Source of the DNA: Escherichia phage 132
Reading direction: 5' to 3' (one strand)
DNA: 64,000 bases
Sequence record: MZ417521
Shown here: in pieces, positions 25,863 to 45,545 of the stretch
How the letters are laid out: each line of letters begins with the position of its first letter
Position numbering within the stretch: position 1 is the first letter of the stretch
Program-made: the position numbers and the translations under genes
Notes under the pieces: generated by a model
Databases searched by the model: none
Told to the model about the DNA's origin: nothing
What the model saw: only the letters and a program-made list of their open reading frames with translations

Positions 25863-26071
25863 AACCATGTCACCTTCAAGCAATATTCTTCTACATGCTG
25901 TTTACGACCTTTCTTATCAATAAAGGTATATTCAACGAATGTTCCAATGTAGTCTTTATCTACATCATGTAGGCTATTAATTGGGCATTTAGTACGGCAA
26001 ATGCGTTCCCATTGACGAATAATTTCTGCTTTGTTTTTAGGATCAAACGGATGCGGGTAATGCACTTTCAT
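25859..26071 (-). CDS. Hypothetical 70-aa protein
   Basis: ORF track; overlaps the macro-domain gene stop by 29 nt. Confidence 0.45.
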   Translation of the reverse strand: MKVHYPHPFDPKNKAEIIRQWERICRTKCPINSLHDVDKDYIGTFVEYTFIDKKGRKQHVEEYCLKVTWL

Positions 26072-26522
26072 AATCCACCACTATTAAATCAATATCAGGA
26101 GTAAACATGTCGATTAATTTAGAAACCTTATCCCAATCACCGCCAGCAATACCACAACCTATGCGTGGAATGTAAATTACTGGTTTAAACAAAAGGGTTT
26201 CTGCCTGTAGATTTAATTCTATCATGCAGTTTACTAAAGCACCATAATCAAGATTAGGACCTGGTTCGTATTGCGTATACAGGTTATAGCATATACCAAA
26301 ACCATTAGGTTTATGTTTAAAAACAATAGACATATCGCCTAATTTATCACGCGAACCATATTCAGTTGTGGTCTTATCTATTTCTAAAATTTTGGGATAG
26401 GCTCTTGCTAATTGACCCGCTACACCTGAACCCATAGTATGAAAACAGTTACACCCATGCGCAATAATATTACCTTGAAGAAATAGGGCGACAATATCGC
26501 CCTTGATATATTTTACAATCAT
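26043..26522 (-). CDS. Macro-domain-like protein (putative ADP-ribose binding/hydrolase)
   Basis: 159 aa; motifs GDIV...NIIAHGCNC, GSGVAGQL, IYIPRIGCGIAGG line up with macro-domain signatures. Confidence 0.5.
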   Translation of the reverse strand: MIVKYIKGDIVALFLQGNIIAHGCNCFHTMGSGVAGQLARAYPKILEIDKTTTEYGSRDKLGDMSIVFKHKPNGFGICYNLYTQYEPGPNLDYGALVNCMIELNLQAETLLFKPVIYIPRIGCGIAGGDWDKVSKLIDMFTPDIDLIVVDYESALPASV

Positions 26523-26866: not shown

Positions 26867-27404
26867 TTACTATTTCCAAAAGTTTATTATTTTTAAGGTA
26901 ATTAGCCTTTTCTAGGACTTCAGAAGCATATTTAGAACCTGCTTTAACATTCCATCCCGAATTATAAGAGGATATTGCTTTTCTTATATCGCCCTTATGT
27001 ATATTTAACCAATAAGAAAGTTCAATGTACGCCCAGGAAGCTGAATTGGACCGTTTATTCAACATTCTTTTTATTTCAGCATCAGTCATATTATAACCAA
27101 GTTCCTTAACTCTTGCTCGCATAGTAGGCAAATAATTTTGGAACATTCCATAAGCGTGATGCTTTGGTTTAGATTTTAAATTAACTCCGCCAGAGCTTTC
27201 TTGCCATAAAATGGCTGCCATTATATGACCCAATCCACTCTTGTGGATATTTTTGTGTGTTTTATATTTTCCATCCTTAGAAAATTGTTCCCCGAATTGA
27301 TACGCGTAACGCATGTTATCGAGTTGGACATTACTGAAAGTATGCTCGGAGCTATGTGCCATCATTGAAATGGCCAATAGACCAGCGAGTAGTGCTTTTC
27401 TCAT
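26859..27404 (-). CDS. Periplasmic lytic transglycosylase-like protein (lysozyme-like fold) with signal peptide
   Basis: 181 aa; signal peptide MRKALLAGLLAISMMAHS; transglycosylase-like motifs ILWQESSGG and SYNSGW. Confidence 0.55.
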   Translation of the reverse strand: MRKALLAGLLAISMMAHSSEHTFSNVQLDNMRYAYQFGEQFSKDGKYKTHKNIHKSGLGHIMAAILWQESSGGVNLKSKPKHHAYGMFQNYLPTMRARVKELGYNMTDAEIKRMLNKRSNSASWAYIELSYWLNIHKGDIRKAISSYNSGWNVKAGSKYASEVLEKANYLKNNKLLEIVND

Positions 27405-27411
27405 GCTTACC

Positions 27412-27873
27412 TCATTGAGTTTTAATTACTGCTTTAGAAGCCTTTCCTGGTAAACGACGACTGTTGATAATTGCCATCCTGCATTGAAGTGACGGGTTTT
27501 TGAACTTCTCATTAGGCTTACAAACTGTAAATCCAAGCCAAAGATTTCCATCTGTGATTTCTAAACGCCCAGGACGATATTCAACACCATCAATAAAATC
27601 CTCGTCAATGTCAGGACGCGGAGGCATACTCAGGAATTCATTAACTTCTAAAACATGGTCTTTTATTTTATGGAATAATTCAAAAACATATGTCTCATCA
27701 ATCTCCCGTTGAATTGCGCGATCAAGAAGATGCTGAGAATATTTTAGATGAAACGATGAGACCCCTGCTGCTTTTGATGCCTCACGAATCTCATTGTTAA
27801 TTTGACGAAACTCCGACTCAAAGTGACGACGAAGCTTATTTCGACGGATAAAAACTTCTGTATTGATAGTCAT
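27412..27873 (-). CDS. regB: RegB site-specific endoribonuclease
   Basis: 153 aa; matches my recollection of T4 RegB; early promoter immediately upstream. Confidence 0.75.
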   Translation of the reverse strand: MTINTEVFIRRNKLRRHFESEFRQINNEIREASKAAGVSSFHLKYSQHLLDRAIQREIDETYVFELFHKIKDHVLEVNEFLSMPPRPDIDEDFIDGVEYRPGRLEITDGNLWLGFTVCKPNEKFKNPSLQCRMAIINSRRLPGKASKAVIKTQ

Positions 27874-27900
27874 GTTATTCTCCTCTTAACTGATAGAAAA

Positions 27901-27930
27901 ATTATACCACAGTCAAGAGGAAAAGTAAAC
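27901..27930 (-). promoter_or_regulatory. Early sigma70-type promoter
   Basis: Minus strand GTTTAC-N18-TGG-TATAAT; upstream of regB. Confidence 0.65.
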
Positions 27931-27932
27931 AG

Positions 27933-28211
27933 TTATTCTTTAAATCTAATCAATTTATTCATAGACTTTGAAACTTCTGCACGAACCTCATGCAGATTTT
28001 TGAGCTGTTCAAGACGCTGCGTATAGTAAGCAATTTCATCTTCTTCGAGACAGTCCTGTGAATCTTCTTTAAGATAACGTGCATAGTCCTGAAAAGCGTT
28101 ACGAACTACTTCCTGGAAATCATCAAGACTTTGAATTTTCTTAGGAGCAGCAGATACACGACGAGGGGCAGTATAATACTCATAACCAAACCCTGCGCTT
28201 AATTGAGCCAT
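27933..28211 (-). CDS. Hypothetical 92-aa protein (first gene after regB)
   Basis: Internal ATG ([13 protein letters not shown]...) with ATGA overlap to the upstream gene. Confidence 0.5.
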
Positions 28212-28477
28212 TAGTATTTTTCCTCTGGTTGGAACACTGCACGACAAGCCCACATACTGGCTTCTTTGAGTTTCGCTTTAGCAATAGTTAACTGATCGAG
28301 GCTTTCAGCATAATTCTTCGCGAATTCACAGTCTTCGCAATTATCTAGTGCTTCCCAAAATTCATCATATAAAGCGTCAAAGATAAGTCCTAAACGAACT
28401 TCAGCGTCTTTAATAGCATTTACTTTACCGATTTTTTCGTCGGTATGTGGCTTATAACCTTTAATATCTTCAATCAT
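28211..28477 (-). CDS. Hypothetical 88-aa protein at the T4 vs.4 (Acb2) position
   Basis: Internal ATG with GAGGAAG SD; second gene after regB; identity as a cyclic-oligonucleotide sponge is positional only. Confidence 0.45.
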
Positions 28478-28691
28478 ATTTGACTTCCTCACCAGTGCAT
28501 AAATCATATTCAACTAAACGAATAGGTTCATGAATGCCATATCCTTGAACAGAAATTTCTGTAGTAGGATAAATTCCATTAATATCACCCATGTTCCATG
28601 CTTCGTTAAATTGCTGTTCGCCTGAATTACTAAACCATTCGGCGAAAGCATTTAGCACATCTTCAGAACCTTCAATAATTATCTTTGCCAT
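28470..28691 (-). CDS. Hypothetical 73-aa acidic protein
   Basis: ORF track; TAATG overlap with the upstream gene. Confidence 0.5.
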   Translation of the reverse strand: MAKIIIEGSEDVLNAFAEWFSNSGEQQFNEAWNMGDINGIYPTTEISVQGYGIHEPIRLVEYDLCTGEEVKYD

Positions 28692-29053
28692 TACAAACTC
28701 TCGGTAAAGGTACGAGCGATAACGTCGCGCTGCTGTTCCGGAGTCAGAGAGTTAAAGCGAACTGCATAACCGGATACACGGATGGTCAGCTGCGGATATT
28801 TTTCCGGATGCTTAACTGCATCTTCCAGAGTTTCACGACGCAGAACGTTAACGTTCAGGTGTTGACCACCTTCAATTTTAACTGTAGGCTGTGGCTCAAT
28901 TTCAATTTCACGGGCATGCAAACCATAGAAAATTTCTGGGTCTACAAAAGAGTCCTCTTTAAAGGTTTTAGAAACGATAATTCGTGCTTGAATACCATCT
29001 TCAAAATAAATAGTACCTTTATGTGTGCCTTCAAGAATTTGATATGCTTTCAT
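28691..29053 (-). CDS. Autonomous glycyl-radical cofactor (GrcA/YfiD-like)
   Basis: 120 aa; C-terminal half ...[60 protein letters not shown] carries the RVSGY glycyl-radical motif and matches E. coli GrcA as I recall it; 3' part of the gene is visibly more GC-rich than its surroundings. Confidence 0.75.
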
Positions 29054-29060
29054 ATAAACC

Positions 29061-29390
29061 TCAATTAGAAAATAAATTTATCCAAGATTGTTCTTTAATT
29101 AAAAACGGCTCAGAATCATATGCCATTAAACTTTGGGTAATTAATCCTTTAAAAGGTCCATCAATAAATTCCATGGTAAAATATGGAATTTTATTCATTA
29201 ATCTTGCATTAGGAGCAGTGCACAAAACTCTGCATCCTTTGAATACGCCTTTTTGTAATTTGTATTGCTTAGGATAAAATTCGCTCAAGACGTTGTTATT
29301 TGCCAAAATTTCAAAATGATTCACCAATTTATTTTTAATAGTTTTTGGCGAAAAATAAAGATATTCGAAAAGTTGCGTATCTGTCATCAT
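29061..29390 (-). CDS. Hypothetical 109-aa protein
   Basis: Start at ATGATGA overlap with the upstream gene; the ORF-track start is further upstream. Confidence 0.45.
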
Positions 29391-29926
29391 TGCATCCCAA
29401 TTACGAAAAACTGTGGACGAGTAATACCACCAATGCAACATTTACTATTGCAGCAGTAATGTACAGTGTCAATATGGACACTATAAATTTTATCCATATC
29501 AGGAGCTTTAACAGGCTCATCAATTATATACAAAATTCGCGAAAGCAATAAACCCCTGAACTTGCTTCCTTTATTGCCAATAAAACTACGGACAGAATCA
29601 GTAAATAAGCGGAATCGAATATCATCGCTAGAATAACGAGAAAATTCTTTTTTAATGTGGCCTGCAGAAATTTTAGCATAAGCTGAAGTATTAGAAAGAA
29701 CAATAACTGTTCCACCGTCATACAGCCAATTAACAGCAAAATTAGTTACTGCGGTCGATTTACCTGATTGTCTGCCACCGTCTAAACGAAGTGTACAATA
29801 CTGCTTGAGTACGTCTTCAAATGGTGGGGCATAACCGTTCTTACAAATTTCTTCTACTCTAGCATCAGAATGGTGTGTAAAAGCATTCATCAGGGATAGA
29901 TAAGGACCAGTTAAAAATGTTCTCAT
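29387..29926 (-). CDS. P-loop NTPase-like protein
   Basis: Walker A GGRQSGKST and Walker B-like ILYIIDEP; start chosen at the ATG with the best (weak) SD; early-type promoter upstream. Confidence 0.45.
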   Translation of the reverse strand: MRTFLTGPYLSLMNAFTHHSDARVEEICKNGYAPPFEDVLKQYCTLRLDGGRQSGKSTAVTNFAVNWLYDGGTVIVLSNTSAYAKISAGHIKKEFSRYSSDDIRFRLFTDSVRSFIGNKGSKFRGLLLSRILYIIDEPVKAPDMDKIYSVHIDTVHYCCNSKCCIGGITRPQFFVIGMQ

Positions 29927-30006
29927 TTTATTCTCTCTAAGTTTGGGCCATTCCATGGCGCATGAATTGTCCATTTCTGTATTTACCACTCCAAGTAATT
30001 ATGAAT

Positions 30007-30038: not shown

Positions 30039-30341
30039 TTATTTACCTTTAATTACTTTAGCTGCTTCGATAGCCGCTTGCTGAAGGTCATCCATAGACA
30101 TACCGAATTTAGAAGCAAAGTTATCAATTTTCTTTTCGACAGCATTCAAAGGCTTGGCCTGTTTACCTTCATTAGCGCCAGGAAGAGCGAGAATACGCTC
30201 TTTGTCAATATAAAGGCTTACAAGTTTCTTACGGTCTTTATCGGACAAATCGTGAAATGAATGAGCCTTTTTATTTATAGCGGCTTCTAATTTACCTGCA
30301 CTCACTCGCGCTTCAGTAATAAATTCTTGATATGTTTTCAT
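30039..30341 (-). CDS. ipII: Internal protein II-like (capsid-targeted, injected with DNA)
   Basis: 100 aa; N-terminal capsid-targeting sequence MKTYQEFITEA; same size and position as T4 IPII. Confidence 0.6.
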   Translation of the reverse strand: MKTYQEFITEARVSAGKLEAAINKKAHSFHDLSDKDRKKLVSLYIDKERILALPGANEGKQAKPLNAVEKKIDNFASKFGMSMDDLQQAAIEAAKVIKGK

Positions 30342-30354
30342 ATGTTTCCTTTAA

Positions 30355-30378
30355 ATGTAAATAGGCCGTATAGGCCTT
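30355..30378 (-). terminator. Possible terminator after ipIII-like gene
   Basis: AGGCC-UAUAC-GGCCU hairpin with a moderately U-rich tail. Confidence 0.3.
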
Positions 30379-30379
30379 A

Positions 30380-30958
30380 TTAATTACCACGGGCTGCATT
30401 AGCAACGGCGTAAGCGTACTGAACATTAGCGTCTTTAAACGTACCTTTAGAGGTGTCTATTTCTGCCTTAAAGCCGCCTTTAGCCATAACATCGGCAAAT
30501 TCTTTACGGAAAGCCATTGCATCAAGACCTTTCCATGATGATTTATGCTTGGCAAATTCAAGACCAGCGTAGTTGACAGCTTTAGCCAATTTATTATCAA
30601 TGACCCATTTACCAGCTTTAGGCACAAACACCGGGCCTTTCTGTTTAGAGAATAGTTTTAAATTCCAGCGACGAAGGTCACCGTCGGCTTTAACAAAAGC
30701 TGCGTCTAAGTTACTAGCAACAACATCTTCAATATGAGCAAATTTAAGCCCATCAACTTCAATATTTAGATCGTTACGCCAGCGTAGTCCTTCCCAAGCG
30801 AAGGCTTTAAAATCAGAAGCTTTTGTGGCTAGATATCGTTCAAGTGGAGCAGTTTTAGGATCAAAGCCGTTTCCGCCACGATAATTCCACTCGTCCTTAT
30901 TAATGCCTTGGACTTTTCCTGCAAAGGCCTCGGCGATAAATTCTTTATATGTTTTCAT
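30380..30958 (-). CDS. ipIII: Internal protein III-like (capsid-targeted)
   Basis: 192 aa; N-terminus MKTYKEFIAEA; basic Ala/Lys-rich; early promoter upstream. Confidence 0.6.
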   Translation of the reverse strand: MKTYKEFIAEAFAGKVQGINKDEWNYRGGNGFDPKTAPLERYLATKASDFKAFAWEGLRWRNDLNIEVDGLKFAHIEDVVASNLDAAFVKADGDLRRWNLKLFSKQKGPVFVPKAGKWVIDNKLAKAVNYAGLEFAKHKSSWKGLDAMAFRKEFADVMAKGGFKAEIDTSKGTFKDANVQYAYAVANAARGN

Positions 30959-30989
30959 TTTTTGTTTCCTTGTTTGTTTTGATAGAGTA

Positions 30990-31019
30990 ATTATACCATA
31001 TTAATACTTAAGCGTAAAC
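30990..31019 (-). promoter_or_regulatory. Early sigma70-type promoter
   Basis: Minus strand GTTTAC-N18-TGG-TATAAT; upstream of ipIII-like gene. Confidence 0.65.
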
Positions 31020-31022
31020 AAT

Positions 31023-31283
31023 TTAAGCTTTACCGCCAGAAATAATTCCGAAGTTGTTAAAATCGTATTCAATATCGTCAACATCTACTTTAGGACTTGC
31101 TACGACATAAGCAATTTCACTACGTTTTGCATAGGTGTTGATTTCTTTACCATCGCCACCTAAGAAAGAATACCCATTACGTTTTAATGAGCCAAAGTCT
31201 TCCGCATCACCAATGAAAGCTTTAACTTTAAATTTTGGACCTTTGGCATCTGCTTCAATGATAAATTCTTGGTACATTTTCAT
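31023..31283 (-). CDS. Additional capsid-targeted internal protein candidate
   Basis: 86 aa; N-terminus MKMYQEFIIEA; starts directly after the denV stop. Confidence 0.55.
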   Translation of the reverse strand: MKMYQEFIIEADAKGPKFKVKAFIGDAEDFGSLKRNGYSFLGGDGKEINTYAKRSEIAYVVASPKVDVDDIEYDFNNFGIISGGKA

Positions 31284-31289
31284 TTTTCC

Positions 31290-31703
31290 TTAGTAAATTG
31301 ATTTACCATAGTATTTGTACCAAGTCGGGCGCTGAGCAATTTTTTCATCTAAGCGAGCTTGACTTATCGCAATGGACGCTTCGGACGGGACATAATTATT
31401 ACGAAATTCGACAGGGATGTCGGAAATATCCTGGACAGTCGTGTCCTTGATTTTGAAACCACGTTTCAAGCATTCAGCGATTAGCTCGATTTGACGTAAA
31501 CGTAAAAATTCGAGTTTGTCGTAAAAGAATGTTACGTGACCTGTGCCTAAGATAAATGTTGGAGAGATTTTAAAATCCTTTACACGTTTACCGTTTTGAA
31601 CATGTTTACGGACTGCACCAAATACGCGTGGTAATTCACGATACTCAGCCATAAGATGTTGGTCGGTCAGTTCAGAAACAAGTGTTAAATTGATACGAGT
31701 CAT
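31290..31703 (-). CDS. denV: Endonuclease V (pyrimidine-dimer DNA glycosylase/AP lyase)
   Basis: Start at [12 protein letters not shown]... (GGAGGAAATT SD); matches T4 DenV; early promoter upstream. Confidence 0.9.
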
Positions 31704-31730
31704 AATTTCCTCCAAGTAGTTGATGAATGT

Positions 31731-37223: not shown

Positions 37224-37299
37224 TGGTCGAGGCAGTAGGGATCGAACCTACGACCTAGGACTTAGAAGGTCCTTGCTCTTCCTTCTGAGCTATGCCTCG
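37224..37299 (-). tRNA. tRNA-Arg (anticodon TCT)
   Basis: Cloverleaf folded by hand: D stem GCTC/GAGC, anticodon loop CTTCTAA, T arm GTAGG-TTCGATC-CCTAC, 3' CCA encoded. Confidence 0.8.
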
Positions 37300-37303
37300 G
37301 ATT

Positions 37304-37378
37304 TGGCGGACGTGATAGGATTCGAACCTATAACCAATCGCTTAACAGGCGATCGCTCTGCCATTGAGCTACACATCC
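37304..37378 (-). tRNA. tRNA-Asn (anticodon GTT)
   Basis: Acceptor GGATGTG/CACGTCC, anticodon stem ATCGC/GCGAT with loop CTGTTAA, T loop TTCGAAT, CCA encoded. Confidence 0.75.
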
Positions 37379-37382
37379 AAAT

Positions 37383-37469
37383 TGGTGGGGAGTGATGGAG
37401 TCGAACCACCCGAGTCGCAATGACAATGGATTTACAGTCCACACCGCTACCTCTACGGGATAACTCCCC
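37383..37469 (-). tRNA. tRNA-Tyr (anticodon GTA), long variable arm
   Basis: Acceptor GGGGAGT/ACTCCCC, anticodon loop CTGTAAA, long variable arm, T loop TTCGACT, CCA encoded. Confidence 0.7.
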
Positions 37470-37478
37470 AAATTAATT

Positions 37479-37553
37479 TGGTGGCCCTGGGTGGAATTGA
37501 ACCACCATCTGGCGATTATGAGTCGCTTGCTTGAACCTTCCAGCTACAGGGCC
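37479..37553 (-). tRNA. tRNA-Ile/Met (anticodon CAT; likely the lysidine-modified AUA-reading Ile as in T4)
   Basis: Acceptor GGCCCTG/CAGGGCC, anticodon loop CTCATAA, CCA encoded; 1 nt from tRNA-Thr. Confidence 0.75.
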
Positions 37554-37554
37554 T

Positions 37555-37630
37555 TGGTGCTGATTGACGGAATCGAACCGCCGACGTCCTCATTACAAGT
37601 GAGGTGCTCTACCTACTGAGCTAAATCAGC
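37555..37630 (-). tRNA. tRNA-Thr (anticodon TGT)
   Basis: Acceptor GCTGATT/AATCAGC, anticodon stem-loop CCTCA-CTTGTAA-TGAGG, CCA encoded. Confidence 0.8.
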
Positions 37631-37635
37631 AAAAC

Positions 37636-37725
37636 TGGCGGAGGCGATAGGATTTGAACCTATGAGTCGCCGGAGCGACTGCCGGTTTTCAAGACCGGTG
37701 CATTAAACCACTCTGCCACGCCTCC
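37636..37725 (-). tRNA. tRNA-Ser (anticodon TGA), long variable arm
   Basis: Acceptor GGAGGCG/CGCCTCC, anticodon loop CTTGAAA, long variable arm, CCA encoded. Confidence 0.8.
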
Positions 37726-37727
37726 AG

Positions 37728-37801
37728 TCTCCGCGGCAGGATTTGAACCTGCGACATTCTGCTCCCAAAGCAGACGCTCTACCAAACTGAGCTACACGGA
37801 G
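37728..37801 (-). tRNA. tRNA-Pro (anticodon TGG)
   Basis: Anticodon stem TCTGC/GCAGA with loop TTTGGGA, T loop TTCAAAT; CCA not encoded; 2 nt from tRNA-Ser. Confidence 0.75.
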
Positions 37802-37811
37802 TAAATTAAAT

Positions 37812-37885
<74 letters not shown>

Positions 37886-37890
37886 AAATT

Positions 37891-37977
37891 TGGTGCGAGA
37901 AGTGGGACTCGAACCCACAAGGAAATCATTCCGCAGCATTTTAAGTGCTGTGCCTTTACCAATTTGACCATTCTCGC
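37891..37977 (-). tRNA. tRNA-Leu (anticodon TAA), long variable arm
   Basis: Acceptor GCGAGAA/TTCTCGC, anticodon loop CTTAAAA, long variable arm, CCA encoded. Confidence 0.8.
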
Positions 37978-37978
37978 G

Positions 37979-38051
37979 CTGGGAATAAAGGACTCGAACC
38001 TTTGCATCCTGGAATCAAAATCCAGTGCCTTACCAACTTGGCTAATTCCCA
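37979..38051 (-). tRNA. tRNA-Gln (anticodon TTG)
   Basis: Acceptor TGGGAAT/ATTCCCA, anticodon stem-loop CTGGA-TTTTGAT-TCCAG; CCA not encoded; 1 nt from tRNA-Leu. Confidence 0.8.
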
Positions 38052-39822: not shown

Positions 39823-40507
<685 letters not shown>

Positions 40508-40508
<1 letters not shown>

Positions 40509-43834: not shown

Positions 43835-45545
43835 TAACCTTAATTGGTTTGTTGGTGTTGTTGAAGATAGAATGGACCCATTAAAATTAGGTCGCGTTCG
43901 TGTTCGTGTGGTTGGTCTGCATCCACCCCAAAGAGCGCAAGGCGATGTAATGGGTATTCCAACCGATAAATTGCCATGGATGTCAGTTATTCAACCGATA
44001 ACTTCTGCAGCAATGTCTGGAATTGGAGGCTCCGTTACTGGTCCGGTAGAAGGAACTAGAGTATATGGTCATTTTTTAGACAAATGGAAAACTAACGGAA
44101 TTGTCCTTGGCACATATGGTGGAATAGTTCGCGAAAAACCTAATAGACTTGAAGGATTTTCTGACCCAACTGGGCAGTATCCTAGACGTCTAGGAAATGA
44201 TACTAACGTATTAAACCAAGGCGGAGAAGTAGGATATGATTCGTCTTCTAACGTTATCCAAGACAGTAATTTAGACACTGCGATAAATCCCGATGATAGA
44301 CCGCTATCAGAGATTCCAACTGATGATAATCCAAATATGTCAATGGCTGAAATGCTTCGCCGTGATGAAGGATTAAGACTAAAAGTTTATTGGGATACAG
44401 AAGGATATCCGACAATTGGTATTGGTCATCTTATCATGAAGCAGCCAGTTCGTGATATGACCCAAATTAATAAAGTTTTATCAAAACAAGTTGGTCGTGA
44501 AATTACCGGAAATCCAGGTTCTATTACAATGGAAGAAGCGGTAACTTTATTTGAACGCGATTTGGCTGATATGCAACGTGACATTAAATCACATTCTAAA
44601 GTTGGCCCAGTTTGGCAAGCAGTTAATCGTTCTCGTCAAATGGCGTTAGAAAATATGGCATTCCAAATGGGCGTTGGTGGCGTAGCTAAATTTAACACAA
44701 TGTTAACTGCTATGTTAGCCGGAGATTGGGAAAAAGCATACAAAGCCGGTCGTGATTCATTATGGTATCAACAAACAAAAGGCCGTGCATCCCGTGTTAC
44801 CATGATTATTCTTACAGGTAATTTGGAATCATACGGTATTGAAGTTAAAACACCAGCTAGGTCTTTGTCAGCAATGGCTGCTACTGTAGCAAAGTCTTCT
44901 GACCCGGCTGACCCTCCTATTCCGAATGATTCGAGAATTTTATTCAAAGAACCTGTTTCTTCATATAAAGGTGAATATCCGTATGTTCACACAATGGAAA
45001 CTGAAAGCGGTCATATTCAGGAATTTGATGATACCCCTGGGCAAGAACGATACAGATTAGTTCATCCGACTGGAACGTATGAGGAAGTATCACCATCAGG
45101 AAGAAGAACAAGAAAAACTGTTGATAATTTGTATGATATAACAAATGCTGATGGTAATTTTTTAGTAGCCGGCGATAAAAAGACTAACGTCGGTGGATCA
45201 GAAATTTATTACAACATGGATAATCGTCTTCACCAAATAGATGGAAGCAACACAATATTTGTGCGTGGCGATGAAACTAAGACAGTTGAAGGTAATGGAA
45301 CTATCCTAGTCAAAGGTAATGTTACTATTGTAGTTGAAGGTAATGCTGACATTACAGTTAAAGGGGATGCTACCACTTTAGTTGAAGGAAATCAGACTAA
45401 TACAGTAAATGGAAATCTTTCTTGGAAAGTTGCTGGGACAGTTGATTGGGACGTTGGTGGTGATTGGACAGAAAAAATGGCATCTATGAGTTCTATTTCA
45501 TCTGGTCAATACACAATTGATGGATCGAGGATTGACATTGGCTAA
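43818..45545 (+). CDS. 5: Baseplate hub / tail-associated lysozyme gp5
   Basis: 575 aa; central lysozyme domain paralogous to gene e; C-terminal beta-helix VEGN repeats. Confidence 0.9.
   Translation: MEMISNNLNWFVGVVEDRMDPLKLGRVRVRVVGLHPPQRAQGDVMGIPTDKLPWMSVIQPITSAAMSGIGGSVTGPVEGTRVYGHFLDKWKTNGIVLGTYGGIVREKPNRLEGFSDPTGQYPRRLGNDTNVLNQGGEVGYDSSSNVIQDSNLDTAINPDDRPLSEIPTDDNPNMSMAEMLRRDEGLRLKVYWDTEGYPTIGIGHLIMKQPVRDMTQINKVLSKQVGREITGNPGSITMEEAVTLFERDLADMQRDIKSHSKVGPVWQAVNRSRQMALENMAFQMGVGGVAKFNTMLTAMLAGDWEKAYKAGRDSLWYQQTKGRASRVTMIILTGNLESYGIEVKTPARSLSAMAATVAKSSDPADPPIPNDSRILFKEPVSSYKGEYPYVHTMETESGHIQEFDDTPGQERYRLVHPTGTYEEVSPSGRRTRKTVDNLYDITNADGNFLVAGDKKTNVGGSEIYYNMDNRLHQIDGSNTIFVRGDETKTVEGNGTILVKGNVTIVVEGNADITVKGDATTLVEGNQTNTVNGNLSWKVAGTVDWDVGGDWTEKMASMSSISSGQYTIDGSRIDIG

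Follow-up and report, generated by a model that had tools for sequence, protein, structure and literature searches.

Analyses of a 64,000-nucleotide stretch of DNA from Escherichia phage 132 (record MZ417521), referred to here as the window, indicated that it very probably carries two adjacent, translationally coupled counter-defence genes, acb2 (vs.4) and tadIV-1 (vs.3), each coding for a small helical protein predicted to sequester an immune messenger. Both genes are already known, as they are near-identical orthologues of experimentally characterised proteins of phage T4, and neither is new. The gene structure, the orthology, the conservation of functional residues, the purifying selection and the fold predicted for the TadIV-1 monomer were established from the window itself.

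The 92-aa open reading frame, tadIV-1, extends over positions 27933-28211 and the 88-aa open reading frame, acb2, over positions 28211-28477, both on the minus strand and both with an ATG start and a TAA stop. The two genes are adjacent and translationally coupled; the end of acb2 and the start of tadIV-1 have base 28211 in common in a TAATG stop/start overlap, and the acb2 start lies inside the 3' end of vs.5, with an overlap of 8 nt. A GAGGAA Shine-Dalgarno sequence is found 6-9 nt before each ATG, that of acb2 (GAGGAAG, 28484..28490, minus strand, read from the upstream sequence) within the 3' end of vs.5 and that of tadIV-1 (GAGGAA, 28220..28225, minus strand) within the 3' end of acb2. 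Longer variants of both frames, starting from GTG or TTG, are 106 and 100 aa in length; the ATG starts are considered preferable since they agree with those annotated in T4 and with the crystallised Vs.4 (residues 1-88). On the downstream side in the direction of transcription, and across a gap of 59 nt, tadIV-1 is adjoined by regB (27412-27873, minus strand), the endoribonuclease gene, whose product matched Pfam REGB_T4 with E=5.9e-69 and is 99.3% identical to T4 RegB. The 59-nt gap contains a promoter-like TTTACT-17-TATAAT sequence (27929-27901, minus strand). The promoter scan gave 11 sites versus 9.3 +/- 3.3 in the shuffled controls and the terminator scan gave 3 sites versus 1.8 +/- 1.2, with no excess in either case. 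In T4 the vs.3/vs.4 region is placed among the early genes. A plus-strand open reading frame (27802-28026, 74 aa, TTG start) and the nested minus-strand open reading frames at the locus were rejected as spurious, since conservation was confined to the annotated frame.

The original prediction had assigned the 92- and 88-aa genes to vs.3 and vs.4 from their position after regB, and this positional guess is confirmed by sequence, given that the two proteins are 98-99% identical to T4 Vs.3 and Vs.4 (91/92 and 86/88 residues, respectively) and that the region is collinear with T4. The fourth gene from regB (28691-29053), from which the positions had been reckoned, is indeed the vs.6 orthologue, with a Pfam Gly_radical match and 100% identity to T4 Vs.6. 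The local gene order is that of T4, regB-vs.3-vs.4-vs.5-vs.6; in the T4T record the genes follow the order vs - vs.1 - regB - vs.3 - vs.4 - vs.5 - vs.6 - vs.7 - vs.8, and their lengths and overlaps in the vs/regB region equal those of the window. Searches of the window with the T4 proteins (tblastn) revealed collinear matches with 94-100% identity, and between tk and vs.8 the gene order shows no shift relative to T4. Megablast of positions 27400-29500 matched 802 phage records, with a query coverage of at least 80% in 489 of them; nearly all of these matches belong to Tequatrovirus or to related T-even phages, and the identity to T4 itself is 97.2%. The source of the window is a T4-like Tequatrovirus.

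Comparison of the nucleotide sequences of vs.3 with those of T4 revealed seven differences, which correspond to six synonymous codons and one non-synonymous codon, while the nine differences found in vs.4 correspond to seven synonymous and two non-synonymous codons. For both genes together 13 synonymous and 3 non-synonymous codons were counted, and as the changes are mostly synonymous both genes appear to be under purifying selection. Small size and an AT-rich sequence, and nothing else, would favour the reading that these open reading frames are chance frames; together with the related possibility that a shift in synteny makes them genes other than vs.3 and vs.4, this reading has next to no likelihood. 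Both versions are refuted by the identity to the T4 counterparts, by the mainly synonymous pattern of substitution and by the strong Pfam, PHROG and PDB matches described below for the vs.3 and vs.4 products.

The 88-aa protein is identified by orthology as Acb2, the T4 Vs.4 orthologue and a cyclic-dinucleotide sponge. It matched Vs.4 of PDB 7UQ2 at 86 of the 88 positions (98% identity, E=2.8e-56) and Vs.4 of the T4T record at 98% identity. It also matched the full profile (1-58) of Pfam Acb2_Tad1_hairpin (PF24729) with 66.5 bits (E=2.4e-18), the curated gathering cut-off being 27 bits, and fell in PHROG 717 (E=1.7e-31), which is the family used by Jenson et al. for the Vs.4 homologues (PMC10097602); NCBIfam has no model for Vs.4. 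Since acb2 and vs.4 have been explicitly equated (PMC12657218), the statement in the original prediction that vs.4 is Acb2 proved correct, and the similarity to Acb2 is clear both in the sequence and in the Pfam match.

The T4 protein (PDB 7UQ2; Jenson et al. 2023, PMC10097602) has the same 88-aa length, start and stop, is coded at the same position between vs.5 and vs.3, and is identical to the window protein in all cGAMP-contact and hexamer-interface residues. The Vs.4 hexamer binds three molecules of 3',3'-cGAMP with a Kd of about 30 nM; Y8 and F82 stack on the cGAMP bases, Y8, H11, K23 and R79 make polar contacts, and L29, F33, A66, A73 and A77 constitute the hexamer interface (PMC10097602). 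In the same work T12I and S74N were loss-of-function mutations, and Y8, F82, L29, A66, A73 and A77 were also mutated (PMC10097602). Alignment of the window Acb2 revealed that the contact residues Y8, H11, K23, S74, R79 and F82 and the five interface residues are all present, as are T12 and L60. The contact and interface residues and T12 were also invariant in six aligned relatives belonging to four T-even lineages, namely Tequatrovirus, Mosigvirus, Gaprivervirus and one genus-less Tevenvirinae record. The only differences between the window protein and T4 Acb2 are E13D and T68A.

The Acb2 of phage PaMx33 (PDB 8H2J, 8IXZ and related entries; Huiting et al. 2023; Cao et al., PMC10312549) carries the same Pfam Acb2_Tad1_hairpin domain and is, like T4 Acb2, a hexameric cyclic-dinucleotide sponge. 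The T4 and PaMx33 proteins are about 24% identical (PMC10312549), and the phmmer match of the window protein to 8IXZ and 8H2J was weak (E about 0.26) and in the correct register, with Y8 aligned to the tyrosine of the PaMx33 'KIKGYR'. A second pocket of PaMx33 Acb2 (R67, T74) binds cyclic trinucleotides, and T74 is required for the binding of cA3, whereas T4 Acb2 binds cyclic dinucleotides and not cA3 (PMC10312549). The window Acb2 does not have the PaMx33 pocket residues, showing D61 and A68 at the positions of R67 and T74; T4 T68 is the residue that aligns with T74. Since cyclic-trinucleotide binding is missing in T4 Acb2, the window Acb2 is predicted to be, like it, a dinucleotide-only sponge.

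From its sequence, the 92-aa protein is TadIV-1, the T4 Vs.3 orthologue and an N7-cADPR sponge, in its long (active) form; this known function of vs.3 is the only omission of the original prediction. T4 Vs.3 was renamed TadIV-1 in a paper published in April 2026 (Chen et al., Nat Commun 2026; PMC13243611), according to which T4 has no other inhibitor of type IV Thoeris. According to that paper TadIV-1 sequesters the TIR product N7-cADPR without degradation, with a Kd of about 216 nM, and the ligand comes off intact upon denaturation; the protein is a homodimer of two-helix hairpins in which a disordered N-terminal loop makes the binding pocket, and mutagenesis shows R17, R18 and K24 (T4 numbering) to be important (PMC13243611). 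Only long homologues (about 90 aa or more) are active and the short forms of ~70 aa are inactive, all the long homologues assayed, with identities down to about 70%, having been active (PMC13243611). The structure 9WIW is that of apo UPEC07 TadIV-1, and the published ligand-binding mode is a model backed by mutagenesis, not a solved complex (PMC13243611).

The window Vs.3 differs from Vs.3 of the T4T record solely at V21A, and has in common with T4 TadIV-1 the long form and R17, R18 and K24/K25; it is predicted to fold as a two-helix hairpin. Search of the PDB sequences retrieved 9WIW (E=1.3e-37), and the protein fell in PHROG 2037 (E=1.7e-40); NCBIfam has no model for Vs.3. The 9WIW chain is 100% identical to the product of an Escherichia phage UPEC07 gene (tblastn), which is located between an acb2 homologue and regB. 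The UPEC07 protein (9WIW; PMC13243611) is about 75% identical to the window protein over the aligned positions and has a 9-residue loop insertion that the window protein does not have. The N-terminal residues 1-25 of the window protein align with those of T4 and UPEC07, and residues R17, R18, K24, K25, K48, E49 and H74 are all kept. R17, R18 and K25 were invariant across the Vs.3 family alignments; UPEC07 K34 was paired with K25 and not with K24, and the window protein has a lysine at both positions.

The AF2 monomer model of the window Vs.3, made from 16 homologues, has helices at residues 29-53 and 57-91 with a mean pLDDT of only 60, while residues 1-22 are disordered with a pLDDT below 50. 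This predicted monomer hairpin with a disordered N-terminus is consistent with the published description of 9WIW. A Foldseek search of the PDB (releases up to 2026-04-08) with the model, a two-helix hairpin being a poor query, gave no significant match; the top one was a type 3 secretion needle/rod protein (E=1.6), and 9WIW was absent from the matches. A Pfam Tex_N match to Vs.3 was sub-threshold (17.6 bits versus a cut-off of 32) and was dismissed as chance. Descent of Vs.3 from a duplication of the adjacent Acb2 followed by divergence, considered in view of the two-helix build of both proteins, was also rejected, as hhalign gave a probability of 0.6% and hence no homology; TadIV-1 is stated by its authors to be a separate family (PMC13243611).

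The molecule name of 9WIW is 'Endoribonuclease', and several GenBank records, including those for the Vs.3 homologues of UPEC07, mogra and BYEP02, carry the same annotation, from which it might be concluded that the 92-aa protein is an endoribonuclease. The likelihood of this is exceedingly small. The 92-aa protein does not match Pfam REGB_T4, which is matched only by the true regB, and the mogra homologues of vs.7 and vs.8 bear the very same note, 'Endoribonuclease RegB T4-bacteriophage encoded'. Moreover, the paper of the 9WIW depositors describes the protein as the sponge TadIV-1, from which the ligand is released intact after denaturation (PMC13243611). The 'endoribonuclease' label is an annotation error that has spread from the neighbouring regB and has now reached the PDB molecule name. 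The mislabelled records, with positions counted within the stretch compared, are MW250787 (2501-2806), MN850579 (29-328, 1177-2021), OR757454 (567-845) and PDB 9WIW; flagging this widespread mislabelling of the Vs.3/TadIV-1 homologues is of value for annotation.

Protein P0042 (83 aa) is a natural frameshifted vs.3 allele, whose first 35 residues are identical to T4 Vs.3 while the rest matches an alternative-frame open reading frame at window positions 27959-28084. The allele exemplifies the loss of tadIV-1 in nature.

The window genes could also be acb2 and tadIV-1 orthologues whose alleles have lost or changed function, for instance if T68A or E13D shifted the ligands of Acb2 enough for escape from Panoptes or if V21A weakened the binding of N7-cADPR. 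Selection against functional Acb2 does occur in nature, as illustrated by a binding-site mutation in T2 and a stop codon in PaMx41 (PMC12657218), and frameshifted natural vs.3 alleles such as P0042 occur as well. The window Acb2 allele, with E13D and T68A together, is not matched at 100% by any record of the phage collection, the best being 98.9% identical, and V21A sits in the flexible TadIV-1 loop implicated in N7-cADPR binding. However, such a loss or change is very improbable. Every residue important by mutagenesis is intact in both window proteins. D13 is the usual state in the Acb2 relatives, in which T, Q or D occurs at the naturally variable position 68, while A21 of Vs.3 is a common natural allele, since at least 63 phage records match the window Vs.3 at 99% identity or more, with 100% identity in all twelve of the matches listed. 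The activity of all assayed long TadIV-1 homologues down to about 70% identity (PMC13243611) and the synonymous bias, which points to continuing purifying selection, likewise speak against such a change.

For the two sponges the oligomeric state, ligands, affinities and phenotypes are drawn from the literature on the 98-99% identical T4 proteins. The window Acb2 would form a hexamer with three cyclic dinucleotides bound at the dimer interfaces, the ligand probably being held by pi-stacking of Y8 and F82 and by polar contacts of H11, K23 and R79. For Acb2, affinities of about 30-84 nM towards 3',3'-cGAMP and of about 62 nM towards 2',3'-c-di-AMP have been published. Sequestration by Acb2, with high affinity and no cleavage of the cyclic dinucleotide, would deny the signal to CBASS effectors such as CapV. 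Acb2 is also known to trigger the Panoptes guard system via the sequestration of 2',3'-c-di-AMP, with a Kd of about 62 nM (PMC12657218), and should render the phage sensitive to this system (OptSE). The window TadIV-1 would form a homodimer of two-helix hairpins, in which the flexible N-terminal loops, with R17, R18 and K24, and helix alpha-1 of the other protomer may jointly bind two molecules of N7-cADPR; upon this capture the caspase-like effector of type IV Thoeris would stay inactive. The same strategy is found in Tad1, Tad2, Acb4, Sequestin (T4 Y16Q) and Lockin, which are small homo-oligomeric nucleotide-signal sponges of families unrelated to the window proteins. Some Tad2 homologues bind N7-cADPR too (PMC12393519).

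Directly upstream of acb2 lies the vs.5 orthologue (28470..28691, minus strand), coding for a 73-aa protein with 98.6% identity to T4 Vs.5. The product belongs to PHROG 1986, a family without known function, and no match to it was found in Pfam, NCBIfam or the PDB. As vs.5, acb2 and tadIV-1 are overlapping and coupled, and two of the three products are now known sponges, it may be considered, albeit as an unlikely possibility, that vs.5-acb2-tadIV-1 is a small anti-signalling island with a further counter-defence protein (Vs.5, Vs.7 or Vs.8), or that the rare T68A allele alters the specificity of Acb2. None of the other genes in the 'Part I' fragment of the TadIV-1 paper is an inhibitor of type IV Thoeris (PMC13243611).

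Several other features were observed in the window outside the acb2 and tadIV-1 locus. The tk.4 macrodomain gene (26043-26522, minus strand) has only 57% identity to T4 Tk.4, against 100% for tk, vs and vs.1 on its flanks, and it looks like a local allele replacement inside a T4-identical stretch. At 29387-29989 (minus strand), compared with T4 Vs.8 (216 aa), the N-terminal portion in the window lies out of frame and is interrupted by a stop, the corresponding HSP at 29987-29931 lying in another frame and reading 'MAQT*RE'. The window Vs.8 probably begins at MRTF (ATG near 29926), which gives a short form of about 179 aa and not the 200-aa open reading frame with a GTG start; the annotation of phage mogra has that short form.

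Between vs.8 and denV (31290-31715, minus strand) three genes whose products have N-termini of the internal-head-protein type (MKTYQEFI...) were found at 30039-31283 (minus strand). These comprise a 100-aa gene resembling ipII (93% identity to T4), a 192-aa one resembling ipIII (91%) and an additional 86-aa gene of internal-head type for which tblastn gave no T4 counterpart; T4 ipI had no match in the window by tblastn. The order in T4 is vs.8-denV-ipII-ipIII-e, whereas in the window the ip-type genes stand ahead of denV. This ip/denV arrangement is common to 64 phage records at a coverage of at least 80%, for example Mosigvirus mogra and AV114.

A cluster of ten tRNA genes was located at 37224-38051 (minus strand), specific for Arg, Asn, Tyr, Met(CAT), Thr, Ser, Pro, Gly, Leu and Gln. 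T4 has 8 tRNA genes, of which the T4T stretch compared shows only seven; the window tRNA-Asn and tRNA-Tyr appear to be additional relative to T4, and the tRNA with the CAT anticodon occupies the position of the T4-annotated tRNA-Ile. A second lysozyme-like region at 44337-44834 (plus strand) matched T4 lysozyme e by tblastn with 43% identity over 166 aa, and from the gene order of T4 it is probably the lysozyme domain of the baseplate protein gp5.

A search with T4 gp57B (tblastn) located the acb1 (gene 57B) orthologue at 39826..40281 (minus strand), with 99.3% identity over 152 aa; it adjoins 57A (40284-40508). Acb1 is an anti-CBASS cyclic-oligonucleotide phosphodiesterase (PMC12657218), and with both acb1 and acb2 present the phage has the two anti-CBASS genes of T4. 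The value of the identification of acb2 and tadIV-1 is mainly one of annotation, and no open question is advanced by it. With Acb1, Acb2 and TadIV-1, inhibitors of nucleotide immune signalling number at least three in this phage, which is accordingly predicted to resist many CBASS systems as well as type IV Thoeris and to be sensitive to Panoptes.
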